A DNA stretch of 45,953 nucleotides from an uncultured bacterium (GCA_964575675.1 CAZNRY010000005.1:1-45953), one strand, 5' to 3'. Positions 3,009 to 45,953 are shown, numbered from the stretch's first letter. Translations and numbers: made by a program. Notes: generated by a model not told the origin, from the sequence alone.

Positions 3009-3575
3009 ATGCTCCATAAGAACCAGTCGATTCTGGTGGTAGTGGATGTGCAGTCGAAACTTCTACCCTCGATCCACCAAACGGACGAGACCGTCGAGCA
3101 GATCTGCCGCCTGGTCCGCGGGTTTCGGATCATCGGAGCTCCGGTCCTCGTGACCGAGCAATACAGGAAGGGTCTCGGCGAGACCGATCCGAGGATCCAG
3201 GCTACCGTCGCCGACAAGGATCCTTCGGGCCGGGAGCACGGGTTCGCACCGCTGGAAAAGATGTACTTCTCCTGCGTCCTGGACGACCCGTTCCGCGCCG
3301 CGCTCGAGGCGGCCGGGCGCCGGCAGGTTGTCCTGTGCGGGATCGAGGCGCACGTCTGCATCTACCAGACGGCGGTCCATCTGATCGAGCGAGGGTATCA
3401 CGTCGAAATCGCAGCCGACGCTGTCTCGTCGCGCTCGCCGTACAATAAGAAGATCGCACTCAAGCGTCTCGCGGCCGAAGGGGCGAAGATCTCGTGCGTC
3501 GAGATGGCCGTCTTCGAGATGTTGGAGATGTGCGGGACCGATCCGTTCAAGCAGTGGGTGAAGGCGATCCGCTGA
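3009..3575 (+). CDS. Isochorismatase-like cysteine hydrolase (YcaC-related)
   Basis: VVVDVQSKL, TEQYRKGLG, EKMYFSC, CGIEAHVCIYQT; ATG 3009 preceded by AGGAGGA. Confidence 0.9.
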   Translation: MLHKNQSILVVVDVQSKLLPSIHQTDETVEQICRLVRGFRIIGAPVLVTEQYRKGLGETDPRIQATVADKDPSGREHGFAPLEKMYFSCVLDDPFRAALEAAGRRQVVLCGIEAHVCIYQTAVHLIERGYHVEIAADAVSSRSPYNKKIALKRLAAEGAKISCVEMAVFEMLEMCGTDPFKQWVKAIR

Positions 3576-16443: not shown

Positions 16444-19400
16444 ACGGCGAACCGGTTCGCTCTCATCGTTGCTCTTGCAGCCTCCGGGATCCTGTCCGGC
16501 TCATCATCCGCCGCAGTGAATCACCTGGTCTACGGCCTGACGCCGCCGGGGGGATTCGACGTTCGACGGGACGGGCAGGCGATCGAGCAGGGACTTCAGT
16601 CGAGCGCGATCGGATCGCTCGCTTTCGCGGTCGACGGCGGCGGTTCGTTCGAGATCCTGTCTACTGATCCGTCCAATCCACCTCCCGCCCCCGCAACCGA
16701 TCTCTCGGCCGGATCGGCGACGCTGACCGGCATCACGCTGACCTGGACCGCCCTCGGCGCGGACGGAAGCGTGGGACAGGCGTCGGTCTATGACATCCGC
16801 TACGCGACGGCGGCAATCACGACGTTGAACTGGAACGCGGCCGTGCAGGTCCAGGGGGAGAGCGCGCCGAAACCTGCCGGGCAGGCCGAGAGCTTCACGG
16901 TGGGCAACCTCACAGCCGGGACGGTCTACTACTTCGCGCTGAAGATCGGCGATGAGATTCCATACTGGAGCGGGCTCTCGAACGTCGCCTCGGCGACCAC
17001 GCTTCCCCCGCCCGACGCCACTCCTCCGGCCGCGGTGACGAATCTCGCCGGCGGCTCGCCGAGCCAGACATCGATTCTGCTGACCTGGACCGCGGTCGGG
17101 GACGACGGCGCATCGGGTCGAGCGGCCCTCTACGACATTCGCTATGCAGCGGCGCCGATCACGGGCGCGAGCTGGGGTTCGGCGGCGCAGGTTCAGGGCG
17201 AACCGCCGCCGAAAACCGCGGGGCAACTCGAGAGCCTCGCGATCTCGGGCCTGACGGCGGGTACGACCTACTACTTCGCACTGAAGACGGCTGATGAGAT
17301 CCCCAACTGGAGCGCGATGTCCAACGTCCCCTCGGCCACGACACTTCCTCCTCCGGATACGACCGCCCCGGCCGCGGTGACGAATCTCGCCGCGGGCTCT
17401 CCGACCACGGACGGCATCAGGCTGACGTGGACGGCGGTCGGAGACGACGGCTTGACCGGACGAGCGGCGGCTTACGACATCCGGTATGCAGCTTCGGCGA
17501 TCACGGACGCAACGTGGGGATCGGCGGCCCAGGTCGCGAACGAGCCCGCGCCCGCAATGACGGGACAAGCGCAGGTCTACACGGTGGCCGGTCTCGCGCC
17601 GGGGGTGGTCTACCACTTCGCGATGAAGGTGGGGGACGAAGTTCCCAACTGGGGCGCGATCTCGAACAGCGCCTCGGCGGCGACGCTGCCTCCGGATGCG
17701 ATCCCCCCGGGATCGGTCACGACCCTCGAGACGGAGAGTTCCACTCCGAGCGCAATCACGCTCGCATGGATCGCGGTCGGAGACGACGGCTCGTCGGGTC
17801 AAGCCTCGGTCTACGATCTCCGCCATTCGACCTCGCCGATCACCGCCGAGAACTGGGGTTCCGCCACGCAGGTCGCAGGGGAGCCGAGCCCTAAACCGCC
17901 GGGGCAGGCCGAGAGCTTCAGCCTGGGCGACCTCCTCCCCGACGAACGGTACTTCTTCGCACTCAAGGTCCGGGACGAGGCGATGAACTGGAGCGAGCTG
18001 TCCAACATCGCCACGGTGAAGACCCTTCCGGCGCCGGACACCGCGCCCCCGCAACCGATCGTCGATCACAGGGCCGGCGGCTTGGGACACCGCAGCATCG
18101 AGGTCATCTGGACGGCGCCGAGCGACGACAGTCTCTCCGAGCGGGTTACGTCCTATGAAGGGCGATACACGACGGGCCCGCTCACGGCCTCCTCGTGGTC
18201 AACCGCAACGCCCATCTCGGGCCTCCCCGATCCCGCCCTGCCCGGAGAGACGGATAGGATCCTCCTCGGCGGACTGGCGCCTGCGACCGCCTACACGATC
18301 GGAATTCGCGCCCGAGACGAGATCGGCCATCTCGCCGATCTGGGGACCGTCCTGGGGGTTGGGACGACGTCCGCGCCGGATACGATTCCGCCGGACCGCG
18401 TCGTCGATTTGAGTGTCGTCGGCCGGACGATCTCATCGATCACGATCAGCTGGCACGCCCCCTCGGACAACGTCCCCGATGATTGCGTCGATACCCCGGA
18501 GGTCAGCCGCTACGAGATCCGGTTCGCCACGACGTCTCTGGCGGATGGCGGGTGGGATGCTGGGACGCCGATCGCGGGACCGCCCCCCGAATCGCCCGGC
18601 ATGCCGCAGGAGCTCACGATCTCGGGACTCGCGCCCGCGACCCGGTACTTCATCGCGCTCCGTTCCTGTGATCCCCGCGACCAGTGCTCGGAAACCTCGA
18701 ACCAGGTCGAGCATGCGACGGCGGATCCCGAACCCCTCCCCGATACAGACCCGCCCGGTCCCCCCGCCAACCTCGTCGCTGCCGCGCAGGATACACAATC
18801 GATCCGCCTCGCGTGGATCGCTCCCGGCGGCGACGGCGGACAGGGGAAGGCCGATCACTACGACATCCGCCGTTTTGCACAGCCGTTGACCCTCGAGACG
18901 TGGGATGAAGCGATCCTCGTCACGGTCGACAAACCGTGCGGAGATGCAGGGTCCGCCGAGAGTCATCTGGTCGACCACCTGTCGCCGGCCACGGTCTATC
19001 ACTTCGCGCTGCGCGCGATCGACGCGGCCGGAAATCTAGGACAGATCTCCGCCTCGGTTTCGGACACGACCAGCGCGCCACCGGACCCGATCGACAGAAC
19101 GCCCCCGGGCGCCGTCGCGGACCTCCGCGCCGCCGATGCAGACACCGGCTCGGTTCTCCTCGAGTGGACGACCCCCGGTGATGATCGGGGCCCGTGCGCT
19201 TCCTACGAGCTGCGCTTCTCGAAGACGCCGATCGATTCAGCCGTGTGGGAGGGCGCCACCGTGGCCGGCGACACGCCGTCCCCGGGCTCGCCCGGATCTT
19301 CCGTTTCGCACCGCGTCTCGGGGCTGTCCTCCGCGACGACGTACTACTTCGCCCTCCGCGCGTTCGATGACGCCGGAAACCCGTCGCCGATTTCGAATGT

Positions 19401-27205: not shown

Positions 27206-28449
27206 CCGCCAACACATCATTCCGGATTCCATGGGGCGCCTGGCACGAGGAGCAGGAGCTCGAGCTTTCCCTCCCCGCCGGATGGAGCGTATTCGTCGCC
27301 GCGATCGCCGGCGCGCCGGCTGGGCCCGGCCTCGGAATGGCCCTCGACGCTCCGATCGACTCTCCGTGCATCGAGGAACTGTGCCGGGGGCGCGCCTCCG
27401 CCGCGATCGCGGTCGAGGACATCACGCGCCCCGCGCCGGCGGGGCCCGCCATCGAAGCGATGCTCGACCGCCTGTCCGCGGGCGGAGTCCCCGCGGATCG
27501 GGTGGCGGTGATCGTGGCGATCGGCGGGCACGCCCCGATGCGGCTCAGGGAGCTCAAGGCCAAGCTCGGTGATCGCGTTCTCGCCACCTGCGACGTCTCG
27601 AACCACCATCCTTATGAGAACCTCGTCGACCTGGGAACCTCGAGAAACGGGATTCCCGTTCGCATCAACCGCACCTTTCGGGAGCGCGAGGTTCGGTTGG
27701 CCGTCGGCTCCGTCGTGCCGCATCCCTATGCCGGTTTCGGCGGCGGCGGAAAAATCGTTCTGCCCGGTTTAGCCGGCATCGAGACGCTGGAGATGAACCA
27801 CCGCCCGGCCGTCACGGGTCTTTCGGGCGCCGGGCTGGCGAAGATCGAAGGGAATCAGGCGCGGGCCGAGATGGAAGAGATCGCCCTCGGCGCCGGTCTG
27901 CAGGCCGTCCTGAACATCGTCCCCGATGCCCGCCGCCAACCGCTCGGGTATTTCTTCGGCCATCCGATCGCCGCGCACCGCGCCGCAGTCGCCCTCGCAC
28001 GGCAGGCCTACCGCACCGTGGCGCCGGCCGGGGCCGATGCGGTCCTCTTGAACGCCTATCCGAAGGACGGGGAACTCCTTCAGGTGGGCAACGCCTTCAA
28101 CGCCTACCGCGCGGGCGATGTCCCCCTCGTGCGAGAGGGCGGGACGGTGATCGTCACCGCCGCTTGTCCCGAAGGGCGAGGTCACCACAGTCTTCACGGG
28201 CCGGGGATGAAGCTCTATCGGGATCCGGTCGAACGGGCATATCTCGCGGGACGCGAGTTGATCATTTTTGCGCCGACTCTCTCGACCTTCGACGTTCGGA
28301 AGTCCTTCTGGAGTGGCTACCCGCACGCGCGCGAATGGGAAGATGTGTTGCGGATTCTCGAGCGCAGGCACCCCGGCGGCGGTGCGATGACGGTATTCCC
28401 GACGGCCCCGCTCTCCCTCCCCGCGACCGGGGACCTAGCGGCGCCCTGA
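27202..28449 (+). CDS. LarA-family (nickel-pincer nucleotide-dependent) 2-hydroxy acid racemase/epimerase-like protein (DUF2088)
   Basis: EDITRP, AIGGHAPM, SNHHPY, VVPHPYAGFGGGGKIVLPGLAG, MNH, VREGGTVIVTAACPEGRG; GTG start overlaps the upstream stop (GTGA). Confidence 0.8.
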   Translation: MTANTSFRIPWGAWHEEQELELSLPAGWSVFVAAIAGAPAGPGLGMALDAPIDSPCIEELCRGRASAAIAVEDITRPAPAGPAIEAMLDRLSAGGVPADRVAVIVAIGGHAPMRLRELKAKLGDRVLATCDVSNHHPYENLVDLGTSRNGIPVRINRTFREREVRLAVGSVVPHPYAGFGGGGKIVLPGLAGIETLEMNHRPAVTGLSGAGLAKIEGNQARAEMEEIALGAGLQAVLNIVPDARRQPLGYFFGHPIAAHRAAVALARQAYRTVAPAGADAVLLNAYPKDGELLQVGNAFNAYRAGDVPLVREGGTVIVTAACPEGRGHHSLHGPGMKLYRDPVERAYLAGRELIIFAPTLSTFDVRKSFWSGYPHAREWEDVLRILERRHPGGGAMTVFPTAPLSLPATGDLAAP

Positions 28450-34388: not shown

Positions 34389-37181
34389 TCAGTTGACGAG
34401 AACGACTCGGAGATTCTCTCGGAAGCCCGTCCCCGAAACGCGGCACAGGTAGACTCCCGCCGGAGCCCGACCGCCCGAATCAAGCGTCCCGTCCCAAACG
34501 ATCGATCCTTGCCCGGGCGGAAGAGCCCCTCGGGAATCGAGCGACCGCACCAACCGGCCGGCGGGGTCGTAGATGCGCAGAGAAATCGGGGAGGCGACCG
34601 CGATCTCGTAGGCGATCGCAGTCTCGTCGCGGAACGGATTGGGGAAGCAGCGGCCCACCCATGCGCCGCCCGGGACCTGGTCTTCTCCGGATGCCGGCAG
34701 AGACGACTCCGTGACGTCGAGCCGCTGATCCGCAACGATGCCGGGGAGGATCTGATGGATCCCGCTCGGCCAGTCGATCTCGAGGGTGTCGACGACGGCC
34801 GCGGCTCCCAACCCGAACTCGACGGTGAGCGAGTTCTGAGAAAGATATCCCGCATCGCCGCCGACAGACCGGATCTGCGAAGCTCCGGCCGACACGATGC
34901 GAACCCGCGCTCCGATGGCCGAGGCGTTCGACTCGATCCCCTTGAGACTCAGATGCAGCCAGTGGTTCGCCCCGACCAGATTGTTGCGAACCACTTTCAC
35001 ATTATTGCCGCCCGTCGCCACGACGAGGTCCAAGTCTCCGTCGCCGTCCAGATCGTCCCACGCGGCCCCGTACACATCCCCGGTGCGATCGAGCGGATAG
35101 TCCGTGGTGTCAGAGAACTGGCCGTTCCCATCATTGTGAAACAACCGGCTGGGGGCGCCCCTGTTGGAGAGGAAGATGTCCAGATGACCGTCGTTGTCAT
35201 AGTCGCCCCAGGTAGTCGAGTAGCCCGGACCCGAGTCGTCGAGCGGCTGGGTCGTCACGTCCGTGAAGAGACCCGCACCGTCGTTTCGCAGCAGCCTGTT
35301 CGGACGGTTCCGATTGGCCAGGTAGAGGTCCAGGTCGCCGTCGTTGTCGTAATCCCCCCAGGCGGCCCCCGAGCCCTGCCCGCCCGAGTTGCCCAAGGGG
35401 CCGCTCGTCGCGTCAACAAACGATCCGGCGCCGTCATTCCTGAGGAGCTTGTTGCCGAGGTTCGCCGCGACATAGAGGTCGAGGTCGCCATCCTGATCGC
35501 AGTCCCCCCAGACCGCCCCGCGACTCTCCCCCGCGTAACCGAGCGGACCCGAGGTTGCATTGACGAACCCCGCCGGGCCGTCGTTCCGCAGGAGGATGTT
35601 CGATTGCCCGTTTGTGCGCGTGATGTAAAGATCCGCGTCGCCGTCGTTGTCGTAGTCGCCCCACCCGGAATCGCCCACGTTCCCGGTGATCGCGAGCGGG
35701 CCGGCCGTGCTGTCGACGAAGACACCGCCCCCCTCGTTGTGGAACAGCTTCGCCGTACCTCCCCAGTTCAACAGGTATAGGTCCAGCCCTCCATCGTTGT
35801 CGTAGTCGCCCCACTGCGCCGACATGCTGTTGCCACCGTCGTTCAGTGGAGGCGCCGTCGCGTCTCCGAAGGCGAGCGCACCGTCGTTGCGGTGGAGCTT
35901 GTTCGCAGCGCCATAGACCGGCCAGTAGATATCCTGATCGCCGTCACCGTCGTAGTCGCCGAGCACGGCCGCGTGGGCGCTGACGCTCCGGGCGAGCGCG
36001 GTCGTCGCGTCGGACCATGGACTCATGGGCGGAACCGGCACGCAGGTCCCGTAGTCATAGAGGTAGTGCAGACCGCAGGCGGAGTTGAGCATCGCCCTTC
36101 CGTCGTGGCCGATGCCGGGAACGATCGACAGCTCGTGCAGCCCGAAGATCGACCCGCCGAAATGGTGGATCAGATGGTTCGTGTAGACCATGCCGCGCTC
36201 GAGCCGCTGGCTCCCCTGAAGCATCGCCGCACAATCCTTATCGAGGTAGTAGGAATTCGGATCCGTATCGGCCCCGCCGAGAAGATAGATAACCTCTCGA
36301 TGCGAGTACTGGTCGCGCAGGACCTCCACGCCGATGCTCATGTATGGGTTCAGGTTGTTCAGTCCGTACTTGTAGTCGTCATACGCTGGACAATCGGCTA
36401 GCGTTTCCGGAGGGGGCACCGCGTACTCATAGCCCGTCCCCTCGACCCACCGTTCCGCGTCGAAGTACATGTAAGAGGAGGGATTCGACACGACGTAGCG
36501 AATCGGAATTCCCATCTGACCGGTGAGGACCTGATGAATCGCCGTCCCCGCCGCGTACCGATTGAAAAACTGCCCGCCGGCCGAATGCCCGGCTACGACC
36601 ACTTGCTGCAGGTTCGGGAGGCGCTCGGCGAAGCCGAGCAGGATGGAATCCGTAAGCGCGAAGGAGCTGATCAATGCCGGGCGGGGATGTGCCGGGCTCG
36701 TCAGCGACTGGTCGCCCTGCCGCCATCCCATGTAGGACCAATAGAGGTAGTCCTCCGGCAGGCCGTGCTGGTCCAAATCCGGGGCGGTCAGGAACTGCGG
36801 GGCGATGATCAGGGTCGTGTTCTCGGCATGGTTCGCGCTCACGCCTGCATCGAGGACGTACTTGTAGTAGTCGTCCGCGTTCCGAAGCGTTCCATGGACG
36901 ACGACGATCGCGCGCGTGATGTCCGCATAGGTCCCCTCGATCGGTCGGTTGCCGAAGTAAGGGATCTTGAGACTGTCGGTCCCGACGTGGAAGGTGATCG
37001 TAGTTACCGCGATTGAATCGGCAATGTCGGTCGTGTCCGCGGCGACCCCCTCCGGTAGGAGCTTCGCATCGTACGGCGGATCCTCGTCGCGAGCCGCACG
37101 CGACGGCCCCGCGACCGCGAGAAGGCACAGGACGAAAAGACCGATCGACCACAGACATCGTCGGTTTGTTTCTCTCGTCAT
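34389..37181 (-). CDS. Secreted alpha/beta-hydrolase fused to FG-GAP/VCBS propeller, ASPIC/UnbV and FlgD-Ig-like domains
   Basis: Signal peptide from ATG 37181; HGTLRNA, GHSAGGQ, VPGIGHD; seven (W/L)GDYDNDGxxDL-type repeats; NHWLHL...AIGARV...EFGLG; C-terminal FPNPF...WDG...GVYLCR. Confidence 0.85.
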   Translation of the reverse strand: MTRETNRRCLWSIGLFVLCLLAVAGPSRAARDEDPPYDAKLLPEGVAADTTDIADSIAVTTITFHVGTDSLKIPYFGNRPIEGTYADITRAIVVVHGTLRNADDYYKYVLDAGVSANHAENTTLIIAPQFLTAPDLDQHGLPEDYLYWSYMGWRQGDQSLTSPAHPRPALISSFALTDSILLGFAERLPNLQQVVVAGHSAGGQFFNRYAAGTAIHQVLTGQMGIPIRYVVSNPSSYMYFDAERWVEGTGYEYAVPPPETLADCPAYDDYKYGLNNLNPYMSIGVEVLRDQYSHREVIYLLGGADTDPNSYYLDKDCAAMLQGSQRLERGMVYTNHLIHHFGGSIFGLHELSIVPGIGHDGRAMLNSACGLHYLYDYGTCVPVPPMSPWSDATTALARSVSAHAAVLGDYDGDGDQDIYWPVYGAANKLHRNDGALAFGDATAPPLNDGGNSMSAQWGDYDNDGGLDLYLLNWGGTAKLFHNEGGGVFVDSTAGPLAITGNVGDSGWGDYDNDGDADLYITRTNGQSNILLRNDGPAGFVNATSGPLGYAGESRGAVWGDCDQDGDLDLYVAANLGNKLLRNDGAGSFVDATSGPLGNSGGQGSGAAWGDYDNDGDLDLYLANRNRPNRLLRNDGAGLFTDVTTQPLDDSGPGYSTTWGDYDNDGHLDIFLSNRGAPSRLFHNDGNGQFSDTTDYPLDRTGDVYGAAWDDLDGDGDLDLVVATGGNNVKVVRNNLVGANHWLHLSLKGIESNASAIGARVRIVSAGASQIRSVGGDAGYLSQNSLTVEFGLGAAAVVDTLEIDWPSGIHQILPGIVADQRLDVTESSLPASGEDQVPGGAWVGRCFPNPFRDETAIAYEIAVASPISLRIYDPAGRLVRSLDSRGALPPGQGSIVWDGTLDSGGRAPAGVYLCRVSGTGFRENLRVVLVN

Positions 37182-37310
37182 AGCGTCCTTTGCGGGGGGG
37201 CAGTGTGAATAGCTCACCAGTCGTACGATCGAGTTTACGCCAACAGAGCGGGGATGACAAGTCGTGGCAGACTTCTTGCATCCCCTCGGGAGAGAATCAT
37301 CGGAGGTCGA

Positions 37311-38978
37311 ATGACCCACGTACCGCCGGAGTCTCCGGCCCCGCCCCAGGTGGAGTTGGTCGTCTTGCCGGGGGCGCCTGCGCTGCAATCCGGACCCGGG
37401 CGCGTCTCGCAGGTCGAATCGTTCGCCCTCGTGGGCGTCGAGGCGCGGACAGTCGTTGTCGAGGTGTCGGTCACCAATGGCTACCCGCGCACGACGATCG
37501 TCGGCATGCCCGACCTTTCCGTCCGCGAGAGTCGCGAGCGGGTCGAGTCGGCCATCAAGGCGAGCGGCCTCTCGTTTCCCGACCGCCGGATCACGATCAA
37601 CCTCTCCCCTGCCGAGCTGCCGAAGGAAGGGGCGATATTCGATCTTCCGGTCGCCATCGGCATCATCGCGGAGGAGAATGGACTTGCGCGCGACCGACTG
37701 ATGGACTGGGCCATCGCCGGCGAGCTCTCCCTCGATGGCAGCGTCCGTCCCATCCGTGGAGTTCTGGCAATGGCGATGGCGATCGCCTCGTCGTCGAATT
37801 CCCGACGCCGCCTCATGGTGCCCAGGGCAAATGCGGCCGAAGCGGAGATTGTGGACGGGGTACATGTCGTCCCTGTCACCAATCTGCGAGAGGCGGTCGA
37901 TGCCATCCGCGGGCGGCGGCATTCGAGCTCGAGCCCGCCCTCATCGGCCGACCTGGGGGGACCTGCGCCGACGGATGTGATCGGGGGGGCTTCCTCGATC
38001 ACCGCCGCAGAAGTCGATCTCGCGGATGTTCGCGGCCAGCCGGCCGCGCGCCGAGCCTTAGAGGTCGCGGTCGCGGGTGGACACAATCTTCTACTCATCG
38101 GCACGCCTGGCGGTGGGAAGACGCTCCTCGCGCAGCGGATTCCAGGGATCCTCCCTCCAATGTCGCGCCAGGAGAGCTTGGAGGCGACCCTCGTCTATAG
38201 CGCAGCGGGCCGGATTCCGGCCGGCCGGGGACTCCTCGACGTGCGTCCGTTCCGTGCGCCCCACACCTCGATCAGCGCCGTCGGCATGGTCGGGGGCGGG
38301 TCCCGCCCACAGGCCGGGGAGGTCAGCCTCGCGCACAACGGCGTCCTCTTTCTCGACGAGTTACCTGAGTTCGCGCCGAGCACCCTAAATCTCTTGCGAC
38401 AGCCGATCGAGGAAGGACGCATCACGATCGTTCGCGCCCATGGATCGGCCTGCTTTCCGGCGAGGTTCATCCTGGTCGCAGCAATGAATCCCTGTCCGTG
38501 CGGATATCTAGGCGACAGCCGGCGCGCTTGCCGCTGTCCGCCTACCCGCGTGCGGCGGTACCGCGCCCGCGTCAGTGGGCCGCTGCTCGATCGGATCGAT
38601 CTCCACATCGAGGTGCCGCGAGTCTCACTCGACGCGATCGCGGGCGACAAGGACGGAGAGTCAACGACCGACGTCCGCACTCGAGTGATCGCGGCGCGGG
38701 AGATCCAGACGAAGCGATTCGCCGAGGAACCGGGGATCCACTGCAACGCGCAGATGGGCCTACGACTGCTCAAGCAGCACGCGATGCCGGATCCGCGTGG
38801 GCGGGGACTTCTTCGGATGGCCGCGGAGAGGCTGGGGCTGTCGGGCCGCGCGTATCACCGGATCCTTCGCGTGGCGCGAACGATTGCGGATCTCGACAAC
38901 AGCATGAGTGTCGGCGAGAAGCACATCGCCGAGGCGGTCGGGTACCGGGTGCTGGATCGGACGGGACCGGATGGGTAA
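37311..38978 (+). CDS. comM: YifB/ComM Mg-chelatase-like AAA+ ATPase
   Basis: VRESRERV, ITINLSPA, GELSLDG, HNLLLIGTPGGGKT (Walker A), PFRAPH, LFLDELPEF (Walker B), [25 protein letters not shown]; GGAGG RBS before ATG 37311. Confidence 0.95.
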   Translation: MTHVPPESPAPPQVELVVLPGAPALQSGPGRVSQVESFALVGVEARTVVVEVSVTNGYPRTTIVGMPDLSVRESRERVESAIKASGLSFPDRRITINLSPAELPKEGAIFDLPVAIGIIAEENGLARDRLMDWAIAGELSLDGSVRPIRGVLAMAMAIASSSNSRRRLMVPRANAAEAEIVDGVHVVPVTNLREAVDAIRGRRHSSSSPPSSADLGGPAPTDVIGGASSITAAEVDLADVRGQPAARRALEVAVAGGHNLLLIGTPGGGKTLLAQRIPGILPPMSRQESLEATLVYSAAGRIPAGRGLLDVRPFRAPHTSISAVGMVGGGSRPQAGEVSLAHNGVLFLDELPEFAPSTLNLLRQPIEEGRITIVRAHGSACFPARFILVAAMNPCPCGYLGDSRRACRCPPTRVRRYRARVSGPLLDRIDLHIEVPRVSLDAIAGDKDGESTTDVRTRVIAAREIQTKRFAEEPGIHCNAQMGLRLLKQHAMPDPRGRGLLRMAAERLGLSGRAYHRILRVARTIADLDNSMSVGEKHIAEAVGYRVLDRTGPDG

Positions 38979-38990
38979 GGAGACACCCAG

Positions 38991-39680
38991 ATGAGCTGGA
39001 TTCGAGAACCAGTGGACGGCGACATCGACTCTCATTTCGAGATGATAATGGCCCATGTGGAACGGCACGTGGGAGCAATCGCTCACGTGGTGCACACTAT
39101 TGGGCCGACCCTTGTGCACGTTGACGTTTTGCACGTGCGTCCGACTCGGAAGCGCCCGTGGCACACTCTGGTGACCTGCGGTATGAGTCTCCGTCCGATG
39201 TGCCCGCCCGGTGAGGCGGCTGATTGCCGCTACGCCGAGCTCTCTCTCCGCTTGCCGCCTGCCTGGCCGGTGCGCATACCAGATGACGACGCAGGTCGCA
39301 TGTGGCCCTTTCGTGAACTATCCGATCTCGCGCGCCTGCCCCACCTCTCCGAATCCTGGCTCTGGTGGGGCCACACGGTGGCGGCAGATCCGCCCGCGCC
39401 GATCGCGCCGGAGGTCCCATTTTCGGCCTGGATTCTTGGTCCTCCTCTGAGCTTCAAGCCGGCCGGCCGTGAGATCCGATTCGGCCGCGAGGCGATTCGG
39501 CTGCACACCGCGCTGCCGATCTACTCCAAGGAACTCGAGGTCGCACGGATCATGGGCGCCAAAGCGCTCTTCCGACTGCTCTCCATGTGTGGAGTCACCG
39601 ATCTGATCGATGTCAGGCGACCGAACTGCGTGGGCCGGAATGCAGCACGGCCCTCGGGCAGGGCTCCAAGGACCTCTTGA
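38991..39680 (+). CDS. Suppressor-of-fused (SUFU) domain protein
   Basis: VHVDVLHVRPT, HTLVTCGMS, YAELSLRLP, LARLPH, WGHTV, LPIYSKELE; AAGGAG RBS. Confidence 0.85.
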   Translation: MSWIREPVDGDIDSHFEMIMAHVERHVGAIAHVVHTIGPTLVHVDVLHVRPTRKRPWHTLVTCGMSLRPMCPPGEAADCRYAELSLRLPPAWPVRIPDDDAGRMWPFRELSDLARLPHLSESWLWWGHTVAADPPAPIAPEVPFSAWILGPPLSFKPAGREIRFGREAIRLHTALPIYSKELEVARIMGAKALFRLLSMCGVTDLIDVRRPNCVGRNAARPSGRAPRTS

Positions 39681-39711
39681 CGAGGCGGATATAAATAGCC
39701 ATAATGGCGTC
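39677..39711 (+). promoter_or_regulatory. Sigma-70-type promoter of the TA operon, probably leaderless, with a palindromic operator
   Basis: TTGACG (39677-39682), 17-nt spacer, CATAAT (39700-39705), ATG at 39712; palindrome GCCAT-A-ATGGC (39698-39708) covers the -10. Confidence 0.6.
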
Positions 39712-40011
39712 ATGAAAAAGGCCAAGATATCAGAGCTAAGGAATCACTTGAGCCGTTACCTCGACCATGTCCGTGCGGGTGGGCGGGTTCTTGTGCTGGA
39801 TCGAGAGCGACCTGTGGCCGAGATCATTCCTGTCGCACGAGATCAAGCGGACAAGGGGATCGATGACGGCCGGCTCGCGGTTCTCCAGCGTGAGGGACTT
39901 GTGTCGCGCGGGACGGGGCGGATCCCAGCCGAACTACTCCGGCCGACTTCGCTGGCGAAGGGAGCGAAGGTTCTGCAGGCATTGCTGGAGGAGCGGGCGG
40001 GCGGGCGATGA
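39712..40011 (+). CDS. Type II antitoxin, Phd/YefM (prevent-host-death) family
   Basis: MKKAKISELRNHLSRYLDHVRAGGRVLVLDRERPVAEIIP; ATGA overlap with the PIN toxin. Confidence 0.9.
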   Translation: MKKAKISELRNHLSRYLDHVRAGGRVLVLDRERPVAEIIPVARDQADKGIDDGRLAVLQREGLVSRGTGRIPAELLRPTSLAKGAKVLQALLEERAGGR

Positions 40012-40433
40012 AGTTCTGGGATAGCTCGGCCCTCGTCCCCCTTGTCCTTGTCGAAGCGGAGTCAGCTTGGGCCCGCAAGCTCTTGCGATCCGATCCGACC
40101 GGGCTTGTCTGGTACCTTTCTCCCGTCGAGGTCCGATCGGCCCTGGCCAGAAGATGCGGGGACGGGGCTTTGACCGTCGAGGCGTATGAAGCCGCGCGCA
40201 GGCGGACGGAGCGGCTGTTTCAGGCTCTTTCTCACATCCTCCCTCTCGAAGCCGTCCGCGCGCGTGCCCTCCGCCTCCTGGACGTGCACCCACTCAGGGC
40301 TGCCGACTCCCTTCAGCTTGCTGCGGCCCTTGTAGCAACGAATGATCGACCTCAGGACCTGCCTTTTGTGACCCTCGACCGGAGGCTCGCCGATGCAGCC
40401 AGGAGAGAAGGGTTCCCGATCGAGATCGCGTGA
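40008..40433 (+). CDS. vapC: Type II toxin VapC (PIN domain ribonuclease)
   Basis: FWDSSALVPL, VEVRSAL, LRAADSLQLAAA, FVTLDRRLADAARREGF. Confidence 0.92.
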   Translation: MKFWDSSALVPLVLVEAESAWARKLLRSDPTGLVWYLSPVEVRSALARRCGDGALTVEAYEAARRRTERLFQALSHILPLEAVRARALRLLDVHPLRAADSLQLAAALVATNDRPQDLPFVTLDRRLADAARREGFPIEIA

Positions 40434-40560
40434 CAGGCAGGGCCTACCTCTCCCCGAGCGGATTCCAGCATCTCCGTTCAGATTGGCGTCGTTCAGGGCG
40501 ATGAATCCCTGCCCGTGCGGGTATCTCGGGGACAGCCGTCGCGCGTGTCGGTGTCCGCCG
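40409..40560 (+). repeat. Direct repeat copy 1: vapC tail + 64-nt spacer + comM fragment (other copy 44293-44444)
   Basis: 40409-40497 vs 44293-44381: 8 mismatches in 89 nt (manual count), followed by comM-derived AMNPC... sequence. Confidence 0.9.
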
Positions 40561-40630
40561 CAGATCTCGACGGCGCCGCTGCCGTAGGCGAGAAGCACGT
40601 CGCCGAGGCGGTTGGGTAGTGGCGCTGGAC
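40498..40630 (+). pseudogene. comM: Degenerate comM 3'-end fragment with internal deletion
   Basis: [21 protein letters not shown] (40498-40560) joined out of frame to ADLDGAAAVGEKHVAEAVG* (40560-40619), homologous to comM ADLDNSMSVGEKHIAEAVGY. Confidence 0.88.
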
Positions 40631-41244
40631 TCAACGCAACCTTGGGAATCGACGGAGGACTAGGACAACCCTTCCCCGGACGGCACCGTGATCGACCAAG
40701 TTGCGGTCCCATACGGGCCAGCGACCCCTCTTAACCGAACCGCGACCGGCTTCGAAAACTGCGCGCTTAGTGGACCGGTCTTGGGGTCAATGCCACCGGC
40801 CGAAGTCCTAACATCCGGACTGGACCGATCTCACGGGGTCAGGTCACGAGCGCCTTTGGAGGATCGTGTGGGAGCTTTCGGTCGTCGTTTGGTCTCGCCG
40901 GCCGTGGACAAGTCGTCCGCCCCCCCACGTCGGCGGACTACCGTAACCGATTGGGTGATCAATGATTCGCCTAGAAATGGGTGGGCACCATAAGCCCCGA
41001 TTCGGTTCGTCCCCGGGCGCGAAGATCCTCCCCGTGAGACGAAAAGTTCCCTTGCGCGGTCGCTGGACACAGACGATGTCCCGTGACAGGATAGCCCGGA
41101 TCGATGCTTGGGGAAGCATTCGAGGATCCGGATGCACGATCTCCGAGCTTCGGTGGCGACGCGAATGTCGCAGCTGTCGATGCGATGCGGCCGCATAGTG
41201 GTCGGCGACATGGACGGAAACTCTAGGAAGAGGGGGAGAAACGC

Positions 41245-41715
41245 ATGAGACGATTCGTTGGTCTTATTCTCGTTGGGCTCTGTGTGTTTGGTCTGACGGG
41301 CAGCGCCCTGGCGGGCCAGAGCAACACAGGATGCGGACTGGGATCGATCATCTTCAAGGGCCAGGAAGGCCTGCTGTCGCAGACTTGCGCCGCGACGTTC
41401 AACGGCATTTACGGAAACCAGACCTTCGGAATCACCACGGGAACCAGCAACTGCACAAAGGCAACAGGCTTCGCGTCCAATGAGAAGCTCAACAAGTTCG
41501 TGTCCGACAATATGGACAATCTTGCCATGGACATTTCCAAGGGCGGCGGAGAGTACCTGAGCACCCTGGCAGTGCTGTTGGATACGCCGGTCGAGCAGCG
41601 CGCTGCTCTTTACCAGACGCTGCAGGCGAATTTCTCCCAAATCTACACCTCGGAAATCGTCACGCATCTCGACGTTCTGGGGAACATCGAGAAGATCCTG
41701 CACCAGCCAAGCTGA
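41245..41715 (+). CDS. DUF3015 family secreted protein
   Basis: Signal peptide; GCGLGS, AATFNG...NQTFGITTGTSNC, NMDNLAMDISKGGGEYL. Confidence 0.88.
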   Translation: MRRFVGLILVGLCVFGLTGSALAGQSNTGCGLGSIIFKGQEGLLSQTCAATFNGIYGNQTFGITTGTSNCTKATGFASNEKLNKFVSDNMDNLAMDISKGGGEYLSTLAVLLDTPVEQRAALYQTLQANFSQIYTSEIVTHLDVLGNIEKILHQPS

Positions 41716-41738
41716 GCACTCTGCTCCGGCAGTCGAGC

Positions 41739-43700
41739 ATGGGGAGCACACGATCGTTCAGACGGTTTCGTGTGCTCCCCGTCTCATTTGCGCTGATTCT
41801 CGGTTTCTTGCTCCCGCCCCAAGCGAGCGCCGAGACCCTGCCAGTCCGCCCAAGTGCCGCCTCCGCCATCGAGGCGGAGGATAGCTACCTCACCGGCATC
41901 CTCGAGACCGCAGATACACAGAAGCTCTTCCAAGACCGGTACTGGCACATCTTGCTGCACTACAAGCGAGGGATTTTCGGCCTACGCAGTCTCATCGATG
42001 ATCCCAAGTTCTTCGCCGATCCCAACGGCAAGCACGACCCAAGGGCCGAGCTCCGCGCCACGATCCGGTCGTTCTTCCGTCCCGTTGTCGAGGGCGAGAC
42101 ACACCCCGTGTGCCGATTCGTGGCCCGGTTCGAGTGGCTGAAGGAGAAGTTGAACATCGACGAGAGTCGACTTCCGGTGTCTCGTTGCGAGGAGTCCGAG
42201 GCGCTCCTGGAGCAAATTCGGCCCGAGTCCGTGACCCTCATCTTTCCGACGTCCCACATAAACAGCCCGGCCTCGATGTACGGGCACACGCTCCTTACGA
42301 TCGAGACGGCGTCGAAGAGCAGACTCCTCGCGTATGCCGTGAACTACTCGGCCTTGATCCAGGGCGAGACGTTCGCCCCGATCTATATCGGAAAGGGACT
42401 GCTGGGCGGGTATCCCGGCTACTACTCCATCCTCCCCTACTACGCCAAACTACAGGAGTACAGCGACGTCGATGATCGGGACATCTGGGAGTATCCGCTC
42501 AACCTGGACCGGGCGGAAGTGCGCCGTCTCATCCTGCACATCGCCGAGATGGAGGACATCTACTCGCGTTACTACTTCTTCGGCGAGAACTGCTCCTACG
42601 GACTCATGTTTCTGCTGGAAGCCGCGCGCCCCTCGCTTCATCTGACGGATCAGTTCGGTTGGTGGGTCATTCCACTCGATACGATTCGGGCCATGAAGGC
42701 GAGCGGCCTCATCACGGAGGCGGTCTATCGACCTTCGAAGTCGACAAAAATCAACTACCTGTCAGCGCTCTTGACGTCCAAGCTCCGCCAGGAAGCGTGG
42801 GAGGTGACTCAAGGGAAGCGGGAACCGGCGGAGGTGCTGGCACAAGATATTCAGAAGGAAGAGAAGATACGGCTCCTCGACCTGGCGAGCGAGAATCTGC
42901 AGTACGTCTACACGAAGGGGAAACTCGAGAAGGATCTCTACCTGCCGCGATTCCTGAAGACTCTGGAGGCCCGGAGCACTCTCGGCGACACCGGCGATTG
43001 GCGTTACTCGATACCCCCTCCGGGCCGCCCGGACGAAGGTCACCGCTCCAAGCGACTGGCCGCCGGATTGGGGATGCTCGAGACGCAGCCGTTTTGGGAG
43101 ATTCGGTTGCGGCCCGCCTACCACTCGCTGCTGGATTCCGATCGCGGCTACAAGCGAGGTTCGCAGATCATCTTTCTCGATCCATCAATCCGCTACTACC
43201 CGCGTCGGAACGTTCTGGCGCTCGATGGCATCGACCTGATCGACATCGAGTCGATCGCGCCGAGGAACCGGTTTTTCAAGCACATCTCATGGAAAGTGCG
43301 AACGGGATTCTACCGACGATCTCCGGACAACCCTCGGGAGCATCTCAGCTGGAGCCTCAATCCCGGCCTCGGAAGGGCGTACAACCTCCCACTCCTCGGG
43401 CTTTCCTACGCCCTCTTGGAGGGCGATTTTCGAATCGGAGGAGCGCTGGCGCAATCGTATTCGCTGGGAGGCGGCGCATCTGCCGGTGTGATCAAGCAAC
43501 TGACCGGCCGATGGAAGGCGCACCTCTTGGCGAGATACCTTGACTACCCTCTGGGGGACAAGACCCACGACCTGCGCCTTCGCCTTGGCCAGAGCATCAT
43601 GTTGGGAACGAACCTGGGCCTGGCGGTCACGATCGAGAGGAACACGCAAGATGACGACTCTTCGTGGGAGACCAAGCTCAGTGGGAATCTCTGGTTCTAG
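41739..43700 (+). CDS. DUF4105 (Lnb-like N-terminal domain) protein with probable C-terminal outer-membrane beta-barrel
   Basis: WHILLHY, CRFVARF, SPASMYGHTLL, RDIWEYPLNL, YYFFGENCS, YRPS, RPAYH; alternating beta-strands ending in WF. Confidence 0.8.
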   Translation: MGSTRSFRRFRVLPVSFALILGFLLPPQASAETLPVRPSAASAIEAEDSYLTGILETADTQKLFQDRYWHILLHYKRGIFGLRSLIDDPKFFADPNGKHDPRAELRATIRSFFRPVVEGETHPVCRFVARFEWLKEKLNIDESRLPVSRCEESEALLEQIRPESVTLIFPTSHINSPASMYGHTLLTIETASKSRLLAYAVNYSALIQGETFAPIYIGKGLLGGYPGYYSILPYYAKLQEYSDVDDRDIWEYPLNLDRAEVRRLILHIAEMEDIYSRYYFFGENCSYGLMFLLEAARPSLHLTDQFGWWVIPLDTIRAMKASGLITEAVYRPSKSTKINYLSALLTSKLRQEAWEVTQGKREPAEVLAQDIQKEEKIRLLDLASENLQYVYTKGKLEKDLYLPRFLKTLEARSTLGDTGDWRYSIPPPGRPDEGHRSKRLAAGLGMLETQPFWEIRLRPAYHSLLDSDRGYKRGSQIIFLDPSIRYYPRRNVLALDGIDLIDIESIAPRNRFFKHISWKVRTGFYRRSPDNPREHLSWSLNPGLGRAYNLPLLGLSYALLEGDFRIGGALAQSYSLGGGASAGVIKQLTGRWKAHLLARYLDYPLGDKTHDLRLRLGQSIMLGTNLGLAVTIERNTQDDDSSWETKLSGNLWF

Positions 43701-43731
43701 CGTTGCGAGACCGGTCGCCGGACGCGGGGCC

Positions 43732-44289
43732 ATGTTCCCGCTGGTCCTGCTTCTGGCGGTGCTTCTGGGAACTGCCTGCTCCTCCGCGAGGACTGGGCAG
43801 CCCGTGGTTCCCGCCGTGCCGCCGGCGCCACGGCCGCCATCCGAACTACCAACTCATGCCCTGAGCCTTCTGACCAAGAGCAGAACGGATTCCTGTTCGA
43901 TCTGTGCCGAGAAGCTTCGCCAGGAAGCGTTCGAGGAGTTGGACCAGACCTATCGACCGGGCTCGATCCTCGCGAGCGCCGGGCGGGGGGACCTTCTGCG
44001 CGTGACCGGCGAGGAGTCCGAGCTCATGCTCGCTGCACCCCAGGATGACGAACCAAAGCTCACCTTCCGATTCCACACCGCTTCGAATCATCTCGTTGGG
44101 ATTGCAGAGGCGGACTTCACCGACGAGGCGGTCGCACGTCAGCTCCTGTCGATTCCGGAGAGCACGCGGTTGCGTGGAAAGATCGAGATCGTCGCCTACA
44201 AGTATGGCGACGGGGCTACCTTCCTATACTCCACGACCGGCAACTACCTCCAGATTCAGTGCAAACTCCTGGGGATTGCGGCGGAGTAG
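43732..44289 (+). CDS. Putative lipoprotein
   Basis: MFPLVLLLAVLLGTA-C lipobox, Pro-rich linker, CSIC; start uncertain. Confidence 0.6.
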   Translation: MFPLVLLLAVLLGTACSSARTGQPVVPAVPPAPRPPSELPTHALSLLTKSRTDSCSICAEKLRQEAFEELDQTYRPGSILASAGRGDLLRVTGEESELMLAAPQDDEPKLTFRFHTASNHLVGIAEADFTDEAVARQLLSIPESTRLRGKIEIVAYKYGDGATFLYSTTGNYLQIQCKLLGIAAE

Positions 44290-44292
44290 ACT

Positions 44293-44444
44293 AGGGCTCC
44301 CAATCGAGATCGCCTGACAGGCAGGGCCTACCTCTCCCCTAGCGAATTTCAGTATCTCCGTTCAAATTGGCGTCGTTCAGGGCGATGAATCCCTGCCCGT
44401 GTGGGTACCTTGGGGACAGTCGCCGGGCCTGCCGTTGCCCGCCA
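44293..44444 (+). repeat. Direct repeat copy 2: orphan vapC tail (GLPIEIA*) + spacer + comM fragment
   Basis: Homologous to 40409-40560. Confidence 0.9.
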
Positions 44445-44495
44445 ACGAGGATCCGGCAGTATCGCTCGCGCGTGAGCGGACGGCTGCTCGATTCG
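44382..44495 (+). pseudogene. comM: comM internal fragment
   Basis: [37 protein letters not shown] vs comM ...PTRVRRYRARVSGPLLD; ends immediately at the stop codon of the convergent ATPase. Confidence 0.9.
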
Positions 44496-45692
44496 TTAGC
44501 TTACATTGAACCACGGAAGCACGGTGTGAAGACGGTGATGATAGGCCTCGTTTCCCCCTGTGACAAGAATCCCGCCCGTGTCCCCGGATAGACGCAGGTA
44601 CCAGTCCATCCAGGTGAAAGCATCGCTTGGTATGGTCTCGCCCGCCTTGACCTCGATCGGGATTCGTCGTGTGCCGAGATCGATCAGGAAATCCACCTCC
44701 CGGCCTCGCGAATCCCTCCAGAAGAAGATCCGACCCCGCTCACCGTGGTGGAGGAATATCTTCACGAGCTCTGCGTAGATAAAGCTCTCGAAGATCCTTC
44801 CCCGAAGAGGGTGATTGCTCAGATGCTCCGCGCTGCGAATTCCGAGCAGGAAACAAAGAAGCCCCGAATCCAAAAACTGCAGCTTGGGAGATTTGATCAA
44901 ACGCTTGGAGAAGTTCTCGTGATGTGGCTGAACGAGATCGATCACGTAGCTTGCCCGAAGAATGGAGATCCATTTCTTCGCGGTGACGTGGCTCACACCG
45001 GCGTCCCCGCCAAGCGATGAGAGGTTCAAGAGCCCACCGGCTCGACCCGCGCACAGACCGATGAAGCGCGTGAACGCATCCAGGTCGCCCACGCCGGAGA
45101 TCAGACGCACGTCGCGCTCCACGTACGTCCGCACATAGGAGTCCAACCAAGGGGCGGGATCGAGGCCCCGATCGTGGATCCGCGGGAAGAAGCCCATCGA
45201 TAGCGTTTTGTTCAGGTCTGTTCTCGGCTCGTGGGCGTCCTCGACTCTCGGCGGCGCGAAGTCGGTGGGCTCTCGAGCAATCCGCAGATTCAACTCCGCC
45301 ATTGAGAACGGGAGCAGTTCGAGGACCGCCGCACGGCCGGCAAGCGACTGAGAGATTCTCTCTGAAAGAAGGAACTGCTGCGACCCGGTGAGGATCAACG
45401 GCCCGCCCGTACCCTCGTCCGCGAATCTCTGGACATAGGAGAAGAGGTCGGGGGCGTTCTGGACCTCATCGAGAATCGCTCCCGGGAGGCCGCCGAGTCG
45501 GTGAAGGAACCCGCGGGGGTCCTCCTGCGCAAACCGCCGTGTGGCGAGTTCCTCGAGGGAGAGGTACTCGAAGTCCGGAAAAGTGGAACGCGCCAGGGTC
45601 GTCTTCCCAGACTGCCGCGGTCCGGTCAGGAAGACGACCGGATAGTCCTTGGCCCGGTTTCGAAGGATCGGAGCGAGAGTCCGGGGAATCAT
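44496..45692 (-). CDS. AAA+ ATPase (AAA_14) with DUF4143 / PD-(D/E)XK-like C-terminus
   Basis: [51 protein letters not shown]...IEVKAG; ATG 45692 with GGAGGT RBS. Confidence 0.9.
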
Positions 45693-45939
45693 CCGCCTAC
45701 CTCCTGGAGGGCAATCCCTCAATCCCGACCTGCCTCTTGCCGGCGGCATGCACTGAGTACTTTATCGCGGCCCGAGAGCCCGCACAAGTTGAAAGGCTGG
45801 GTTACATTCTGCACTTGTAACCGTAACTAGCTACGACTTAATGACATATGATGATCATGATGCGCTCTCTTGGACTGCTATGAGCTGCTTAGACCGGGTT
45901 TCCGCAGGCAATGGACCCCTTTGTCGCAGGTCGATGAAG

Positions 45940-45953
45940 GCGATGAATCCCTG
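45940..45953 (+). pseudogene. comM: Start of another comM fragment (AMNP...), truncated by the window end
   Basis: GCGATGAATCCCTG is identical to the first 14 nt of the copies at 40498 and 44382. Confidence 0.7.

Follow-up and report, generated by a model that had tools for sequence, protein, structure and literature searches.

The stretch of DNA considered here, hereafter the window, is a 45,953-nt sequence from an uncultured bacterium (GCA_964575675.1, CAZNRY010000005.1:1-45953) in which an intact comM gene is followed by a series of partial copies of the comM 3' end. The window represents the entire contig C5 of a metagenome bin (G000; 327 contigs, 4.06 Mb, 3.76% contamination). A 14-mer, GCRATGAATCCCTG, located at the beginning of comM codons AMNPCPCG, occurs at positions 38481, 40498, 44382 and 45940, always on the plus strand, while its chance expectation is 0.06 and none of 100 shuffled sequences reached four occurrences. 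The distances between successive copies of this core define three units of 2017, 3884 and 1558 bp, each with its own cargo. These copies are mutually 76-87% alike and their flanks differ. Only the proximal comM 3' end encodes a full Mg_chelatase_C domain, the next two fragments being deleted or truncated and the fourth copy being cut off by the contig end. A preliminary description of the window had reported four copies beginning at the same codon, together with the unit sizes, the cargo, the decay of the distal comM ends and the integrity of the proximal end alone, and all of these features were reproduced.

Upstream of the core, homology to comM was not significant in units 1 and 2 (p 0.41 and 0.57, shuffles) and marginal in unit 3 (p 0.05), so that the shared breakpoint stands; a degenerate comM arm upstream of the core, considered for the three units, was unsupported in units 1 and 2 and marginal in unit 3 on the same values. 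Copies 2 and 3 are preceded by a repeated non-comM arm of 97 nt, with 89% identity for the arm alone and 87% over 159 nt when the core is included. The units are flanked by a directly repeated comM segment, corresponding to att-type direct repeats, as expected of cis-mobilizable elements (CIMEs).

A fifth comM fragment was observed on another contig of the bin (C74, ca. 18651-18777, locus L003). With about 125 nt, covering residues ~399-441 and including one stop, it begins about 28 nt further upstream of the core than the window copies and spans the whole attachment region. Genes for M3 and M24 peptidases lie beside it, a hairpin follows, and the contig ends 100 nt away. This fragment may represent an additional decoy site or one more part of the array.

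Tandem copies of this kind may raise the suspicion of an artefact, either a misassembly or a bin mixing the comM alleles of co-occurring strains, as the sequence comes from a metagenome bin with measurable contamination and the contig stops exactly at a repeat, where the assembly branches. However, the limited similarity of the copies and their different flanks argue against this explanation, as do equivalent arrays on long contigs of related genomes, such as G019 C17 (143 kb) and G003 C3 (1.33 Mb). Read evidence, which consisted of Logan contigs only (ca. 5x depth), points in the same direction: site 1 is spanned by a contig from run X2 (40224-40802, 0 differences) and site 2 by a contig from run X5, belonging to a different study (44320-44787). 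Since these independent contigs span both sites, the array is not a misassembly of comM alleles from different strains, one of the conditions under which the preliminary description would have been abandoned, and an artefactual origin is extremely improbable. Pieces of all three units were present in runs of three studies. The sole structural difference among runs is a 648-bp deletion in unit 1 found in X5 (joint 39679->40328), which removes Phd and most of VapC and indicates that this pair is variable in an otherwise conserved unit. In this freshwater-sediment run, the end of the SUFU gene is fused, via 4 other nucleotides, to the final 100 nt of vapC. Two further joints (38359->40497/40498) and several loose ends were traced to short conserved comM stretches of other organisms and are uninformative on excision.

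The array could be followed beyond the window, the last bases of which constitute an assembly branch node leading into two other contigs of the bin, C101 and C230. On C230, the sequence ...CCCTG passes, one base past the window, straight into an antiparallel 521-aa open reading frame (ORF), 3' end first, which encodes a large serine recombinase (LSR). This protein matched PF00239 (Resolvase, 6.7e-31) and PF07508 (Recombinase, 2.5e-21), the zinc ribbon PF13408 remaining below cut-off, and its frame extends across the core into the window (45898-45881, minus strand). The LSR gene is followed by two more genes, one restriction-like (GmrSD_N) and one coupling-protein-like (TraG-D_C). A recombinase, which the preliminary description had suggested to look for at the array end, is thus encoded on C230, and the term "integrase-free" used in that description is correct inside the units but not for the locus, in which an LSR gene abuts the fourth repeat. 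On C101, ...CCCTG is followed by a strongly degenerate comM remnant (residues ~408-448 and 510-550, one stop) and then by glutamate-synthase-like, NuoF-like, ferredoxin and two-component genes; this contig most likely represents the chromosomal flank together with the oldest comM tail. The reverse strand of a further contig, C139, ends with a tandem-HTH XRE gene and then ...GGCAACGCAGGGG-TG-AAGTTGCG, the 8 bases after TG matching C101 at 8/8 and C230 at 6/8 positions. The simplest layout would be comM - unit 1 - unit 2 - unit 3 - [LSR ... XRE] - old comM remnant - chromosome, in which the LSR element would occupy the fourth and most distal site (site 3), with its left end on C230 and its right end on C139. 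An empty form of site 3, with C5 joined to C101, was assembled beside the occupied form, and this coexistence points to a polymorphic population or to ongoing excision. The unit 3 arm was also compared with the right-end arm on C139, and the similarity was not significant (p 0.12). No synteny matches were found between the genes of C101 or C74 and the comM neighborhoods of related genomes.

A solitary remnant of the right-end arm of the LSR element was also observed on contig C17 of the bin (ca. 27963-28012, locus L019), where ...GATCACAAAATGGCAGCGCAAGGG-TG-TCCTTGCGG includes only about 10 nt of comM-like sequence before unrelated DNA.

The same LSR family was found in related genomes. In G004, G003 and G027, representing three genera and two families, comM is split at the same position: its 5' part ends with ...GCNATGAAYCCNTG, and the next base is the 3' end of an antiparallel LSR gene, whose product shares 81%, 77% and 76% identity, respectively, with the C230 protein. 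The distance to the matching comM 3' end is 44 kb in G004 and about 147 kb in G003. In G003, G004, G008, G019, G023, G025, G027 and G037, displaced comM 3' ends follow a conserved right-end module composed of an XRE gene reading away from the site and an arm ending with GGCAACGCAGGG-N-TG, after which comM resumes at the Cys codon. This right-junction pattern was detected at 14 places in 9 of 206 genomes of the phylum, versus 1 match for a reversed control pattern. Left and right junctions have only TG in common, the same dinucleotide across attB, attP, attL and attR, from which we infer that the crossover occurs at the TG of the Cys codon following AMNP.

These attachment sites were collected from intact comM genes (attB), from three relatives and C5/C230 (attL), from nine genomes and C139 (attR), and from six metagenome contigs (attP). 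Joining the two element ends predicts an attP with the near-palindromic structure GGCAACGCA-GGGG-TG-GAGT-TGCGTTGCC, where GGCAACGCA and TGCGTTGCC are exact reverse complements forming a perfect 9-nt inverted repeat around the crossover. This exact sequence was found in six metagenome contigs, with an adjoining XRE homologue in five and an LSR homologue in four, the sixth being a 1-kb contig; the LSR of the attP form on a 206-kb contig is 77% identical. The free-form attP lies between an XRE-type regulator gene and the LSR gene. The enzyme may recombine the attB, attP, attL and attR sites, the sole hint at such activity being the occupied and empty forms of site 3 in one assembly.

Several observations concern the organization of this family. 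In the attP form (L043, 5031-6923, on the 206-kb contig; also L040, L041 and L044), the LSR and XRE genes are co-directional and attP lies inside the LSR 3' end, so that integration would part LSR from XRE and alter the C-terminal tail of the recombinase, a change that could serve as a switch between free and integrated state. At locus L025 (G050:C152), the sequence left of TG specifies a C-terminal tail resembling that of an LSR (...IIHLSYDPS...), oriented like the comM 3' end, and the recombinase would thus be located at the opposite element end in this lineage. Both large comM-inserted elements (G004:C28, 81887-82147; G003:C3, 598249-598515) have a second serine recombinase, with a 538-aa frame in the comM orientation, whose gene and the displaced comM 3' end lie about 11-22 kb apart. 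In G005, a member of the same family, contig C69 (1-528, locus L016) begins 45 nt upstream of the core inside comM, and the comM 5' part was not found in the assembly; the break falls at the same site, as if this site would be polymorphic there too.

Related genomes also contain arrays comparable to that of the window. The C-terminal 165 residues of ComM were matched in 55 of 61 related genomes, several of which carry extra comM 3' segments at separate places, and the breakpoint region is the same while the unit content differs, in line with the comparison proposed in the preliminary description. In G019 (100% complete), the 143-kb contig C17 contains an intact comM and two cassettes, both ending with XRE-arm-TG-comM 3' end, followed by an asparagine-synthase gene. 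No match to PF00589 or PF07508 was found in this comM-cassette stretch, and no C230-like LSR was detected at E<=1e-30 in the genome of G019 or in that of G023, which carries at least two cassettes. The comM 3' copies found within one genome are all open, with 57-91% amino acid identity, dN/dS (nonsynonymous to synonymous divergence) of 0.12-0.31, and dS values of 0.34-0.45 in G019 and 0.9-2.5 in G023 and G027. Such a deep divergence under purifying selection indicates that the comM tails diverged as working genes elsewhere and were then imported, and rules out their duplication in situ (dS 0.34-2.5). The successive acquisitions proposed in the preliminary description, each restoring comM and pushing older ends downstream, fit these diverged tails. 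Cassette content is also shared between genomes. A block composed of a comM 3' end and a 455-aa gene is common to G019, G023 and G027 (72-81% nucleotide identity), and a second cassette block is common to G003 and G023 (78%), two genomes from different families whose comM 5' parts share only 54% protein identity. The cassettes are modular and horizontally shared.

In relatives, the arm was also seen to supply an in-frame ATG (ATG GCA ACG CAG GGG TGC...; L006, 10196-10240, and likewise L004 and L007-L010), so that displaced comM 3' ends read as stop-free ORFs starting with MATQGCPCG... and coding for ca. 180-230 aa. At locus L008 (G027:C1), two further XRE-arm-TG modules, with arm ends at 3107 and 1729, lie 1.4 kb apart and lead into a common unrelated sequence, TG-AGGGTCAGGTG..., which is not comM. 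The G027 array thus continues with junctions to something other than comM.

Features of the window are listed in Table 1. The cargo is mixed, with a toxin-antitoxin pair, a candidate defense ATPase, envelope proteins and many family-less proteins, so that the term "defence array" used previously overstates its nature. The unit 2 gene without family assignment codes for a putative lipoprotein, as suggested by its signal-peptide-like N-terminus. A Pfam scan of the 8 ORFs of the units revealed no recombinase, relaxase or coupling-protein domain, which agrees with the absence of a recombinase noted earlier, and profile searches with PF00589 and PF00239 gave no match on C5. PADLOC gave no match for 4 of 5 window cargo proteins tested and for any of 4 cargo proteins of relatives. 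No Rfam family was detected in 37000-45953, and promoter and terminator scans of the array remained at chance level. Directly upstream of comM, a very long ORF on the minus strand (34389-37922) contains FG-GAP/VCBS-like repeats and has a C-terminal end resembling a secretion-sorting tail, both as read from the translation.

Table 1. Features of the comM array in the window (positions counted from the first nucleotide).
Feature	Position	Strand	Remarks
Intact comM	37254..38978	+	Longest ORF, true start probably further downstream; Pfam ChlI, Mg_chelatase and full-length Mg_chelatase_C
In-use attachment site inside comM, codons AMNPCPCG	38481..38503	+	Predicted LSR crossover at TG 38493-38494; comM of relatives turns into LSR-element sequence right after ...CCNTG
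Unit 1, SUFU-family protein	38991..39680	+	Pfam PF05076, E 7.6e-32
Unit 1, Phd/YefM antitoxin	39712..40011	+	Pfam PF02604; listed ORF 39610-40011, domain from residue 35
Unit 1, PIN/VapC toxin	40008..40433	+	Pfam PF01850
Right-end arm of unit 1, non-comM, starting within the vapC 3' end	40401..40497	+	89% identical to 44285-44381
Displaced comM 3' fragment 1, internal deletion	40498..40618	+	blastn: comM 38481-38542 (85%) and 38910-38944 (91%)
Unit 2, DUF3015 protein	41245..41715	+	Pfam PF11220
Unit 2, Lnb_N/DUF7840/DUF7843 protein	41739..43700	+	Pfam; DUF4105 in the preliminary description
Unit 2, putative lipoprotein, no family	43732..44289	+	Start picked at MFPLVLLL... in ORF 43540-44289; no Pfam match
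Right-end arm of unit 2, with a vapC-like gene reduced to its last codons	44285..44381	+	89% identical to unit 1 arm 40401-40497
Displaced comM 3' fragment 2, truncated	44382..44492	+	111 nt, 76% identical to comM 38481-38591
Unit 3, AAA_14-DUF4143 ATPase	44496..45749	-	Pfam; PADLOC candidate defense family PDC-S01, E 5.7e-98
Assembly branch node, unit 3 arm and fourth core copy (45940-45953)	45899..45953	+	Same sequence as the first 55 bases of C101 and of C230

Based on these data, the region is probably a tandem-accretion array of integrase-less cassettes, built at the attachment site of LSR mobile elements, with each cassette restoring comM. Each unit of the window would be such a cassette, made of a spare comM 3' end, a cargo and a right-end arm. 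Upon acquisition, the 5' part of the resident comM would be joined to the incoming 3' end, restoring the gene and re-creating a usable site, while the previous 3' end would be displaced downstream and decay there. The likeliest route would be cis-mobilization, which involves canonical LSR chemistry only: an LSR element may pair its left junction with a distal right junction and excise together with the intervening cassettes, the composite may then enter comM of a new host by attP x attB recombination, and the LSR element may later leave alone via the proximal right junction. Left behind would be the resident comM 5' part with a foreign 3' end, followed by the cargo, the arm and the old 3' end of the host. 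Accretion with cis-mobilization would explain orphan arrays such as that of G019. Cassettes might alternatively enter as circles moved in trans by an LSR, or by Campbell-type homologous insertion via the comM segment that they carry. The presence of the same cassettes in different genomes and families is the sole indirect sign of co-movement with an autonomous element.

Several findings weigh against this scenario. Canonical LSRs are not known to recombine an attR-type site with attB, so that trans-mobilization has no known precedent outside Ccr/SCC (SCC, staphylococcal cassette chromosome). The Logan contigs revealed neither circular cassettes nor cassette-free sites or composite excision products, which is not evidence of absence, and contigs of three studies showed the same three units, apart from the 648-bp deletion in unit 1. 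The contig order rests on the 55-base overlap linking C5 to C101 and C230, and the link between C139 and C101 on 8 bases. The three unit ends of the window are devoid of the right-end arm found in relatives and keep 12 comM bases (GCGATGAATCCC) left of TG; their arms carry no XRE gene, and those of units 1/2 and unit 3 share only GTCG-N6. The 97-nt arm was unmatched in 34 other genomes of the order, while the arm-plus-core pattern gave only three chance-like matches in 205 other genomes of the phylum and none in genome or metagenome contig collections. Finally, tyrosine integrases classically leave this kind of footprint, a sharp block of identity running from a fixed base to the end of the gene. 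Among the three chance-like matches, those in G026 and G030 are located inside a HepT-like gene, and the third has one mismatch.

The att sites of relatives' cassettes match those of the LSR, whereas the window arms differ in the 12 bases at the crossover. These 12 proximal bases also vary among the right-end arms of relatives, two of which are partly comM-like (GAACCCC-TG in G035 and CCCA-TG in G016). The window arms are probably element-type half-sites whose proximal part is comM-like by chance, and their form could be the extreme of the range seen in relatives. Since they are unlike those of relatives, their tie to the LSR family is indirect, through the use of the same site, the LSR element at site 3, and TTCAGATTG, which is common to unit 1 and to a G027 arm (p 0.003 in one of six arm-versus-unit comparisons, nine having been run in all; weak after correction). 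A resemblance between the G035 arm and unit 1 failed in blastn.

The peculiar junctions of the window might also indicate that another site-specific recombinase, most likely a tyrosine integrase, assembled its units, with an identity block extending from comM codon 410 to the stop, and that the LSR element landed later in the oldest displaced copy; two recombinase families would then have the same highly conserved AMNPCPCG codons as their target. Consistent with this hypothesis, all three copies begin to match comM at one and the same base, 12 nt to the left of the LSR crossover, with no significant homology upstream; GTCG-N6 is found just before the block in the arms of units 1/2 and in that of unit 3, which are otherwise unrelated; a short inverted repeat, CAGGG...CCCTG, surrounds CGATGAAT at sites 1 and 2; and the window form was present in none of the 14 junctions of relatives that were examined. 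The genome also has 10 PF00589 matches on other contigs, and the islands listed for Acidithiobacillus ferrooxidans include one that targets comM and carries an integrase and RitABC (PMC10322971). However, no tyrosine recombinase is encoded on C5, C101, C230 or C139, and no window-type arm was found beside any integrase in the genomes and contig collections searched. Site 3 is used by the LSR element, and, as the 12 proximal bases vary in relatives and are partly comM-like in some, the window form could be the extreme of a range. We consider a second recombinase unlikely.

Alternatively, no site-specific step might be needed. A comM 3' segment captured once, when a comM-inserted element excised aberrantly, would recombine homologously with the resident comM, the breakpoint being the end of the segment; a circle or fragment would enter by Campbell insertion or transformation, duplicating the comM segment. 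Every unit contains several hundred bases of comM homology, arrays persist in genomes devoid of a C230-like LSR, and ComM promotes the recombination of heterologous DNA during transformation (PMC11472951). Yet, the breakpoint coincides with the LSR crossover in relatives, or lies within 12 nt of it in the window, for many independent cassettes with different 3' ends, and the arms beside it show a conservation across families that greatly exceeds that of comM itself. This coincidence and the conservation of the arms fit better with a functional att half-site than with a passive scar, and purely homologous entry thus appears clearly improbable.

Within the framework of LSR-associated accretion, a more specific and rather doubtful proposal is that the cassettes constitute a class of satellites, recombinase-less "comM-repair" units carrying a spare comM C-terminal domain, a cargo and one half-site, that would exploit comM-disrupting LSR elements. 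Each capture would mend comM and leave behind a displaced but still recognizable att site as a harmless landing pad, the array acting as a host-beneficial and self-extending buffer against the target most often chosen by serine integrases, and the window arms might derive from a comM-type half-site made element-type by a 4-bp spacing change, from GTCG-N2 to GTCG-N6. The LSR element of G000 sits in the oldest decoy site and not in the live comM.

Several known systems resemble these arrays. In staphylococci, composite and pseudo-SCC elements at the 3' end of rlmH (orfX), including SCCmec, are LSR-driven stacks of cassettes that leave the target gene intact, and some SCC cassettes without recombinase genes are thought to be moved by Ccr in trans; Ccr enzymes form a distinct LSR group, and the repeat, located at the extreme end of the gene, measures about 15-20 bp. 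Phage 21 and e14 bring a diverged substitute 3' end to icd, leaving a functional gene and a displaced pseudo-end, but they are single prophages with a tyrosine integrase and without stacked integrase-less cassettes.

Accretion and cis-mobilization have been defined for CIMEs (PMC5704250). With ICESt1/ICESt3 at the fda 3' end in Streptococcus thermophilus, the comM array shares att-flanked integrase-less units in tandem with an autonomous element and a conserved gene that is kept intact (PMC5704250). Composite elements can move together in that system and may do so in the comM array; the former relies on a tyrosine integrase and a short duplicated gene end, whereas the latter involves an LSR and the replacement of about 500 bp, or 30% of the gene. 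In Dehalococcoides, LSR islands occur in tandem at ssrA, 15 of which have no integration module and have been suggested to be cis-mobilizable (PMC3146451). Like the comM arrays, they are serine-recombinase islands downstream of one conserved gene, bounded by direct repeats of its 3' end; their target is a tmRNA gene with a 20-bp repeat, in contrast to a protein-coding gene whose whole C-terminal domain is re-supplied, and, unlike at ssrA, the complete LSR element alone splits comM.

Of the predicted site-specific LSRs, 12.4% target Mg-chelatase/ATP-dependent-protease homologues (PMC10083194), and integrase-bearing elements disrupting comM were described in several Proteobacteria (PMC4774983, PMC11472951). 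These comM-inserting LSR elements have the same preferred target and split the gene as in G003, G004 and G027, but the accessible parts of the reports describe disruption only (PMC10083194, PMC4774983), as opposed to replacement 3' ends behind an intact comM. In the full-text literature, with subscription journals mostly outside its reach, we found no description of stacked replacement comM 3' ends restoring the gene behind an LSR site.

The preliminary description had presented the array as integron-like and integrase-free. With integrons, it has in common an ordered and promoter-poor series of cassettes growing at one end, with the newest nearest to the anchor. However, it is devoid of IntI, attI and attC, its boundaries are gene fragments, and its recombinase is a serine enzyme encoded by a mobile element of its own. 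As for an IntI-type tyrosine recombinase, C5, C101, C230 and C139 contain none of the 10 PF00589 matches, and a repeat scan found no attC-type palindrome at the unit ends, which are direct repeats of a comM segment. Regarding Tn7-like, AbaR or Tn6022 features, the ORFs scanned, those of the units and those on C230, contained no transposase domain, the Tns families having not been searched genome-wide, and the duplicated comM segments reach at least 111 nt, unlike the target duplication of a few bases left by Tn7-like islands. The array is neither an integron nor a Tn7-like comM island; in its working it resembles SCC composite islands and CIME arrays, and belongs to neither. A new, integrase-free and integron-like principle is not supported, since an LSR gene abuts the fourth repeat and the same LSR family splits comM in three relatives. 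Tandem arrays with integrase-less units at a recombinase site have already been described, and one of the refuting conditions named in the preliminary description, a relation of the units to ordinary integrase-bearing islands, is therefore partly borne out.

Genes similar to comM are the most frequent reported target of site-specific serine integrases, and these insertions are usually read as crippling transformation. The loci described here illustrate the other side of this relationship, with genomes of one uncultured phylum repeatedly regaining an intact comM via foreign 3' ends. The leftover comM ends are an ordered record of acquisitions, and thus a natural time series of encounters between elements and their hosts. 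These loci also provide natural attB, attP, attL and attR variants for one LSR family, and offer a concrete way to test if cassettes lacking a recombinase can be moved by serine integrases, a mechanism proposed for SCC elements.

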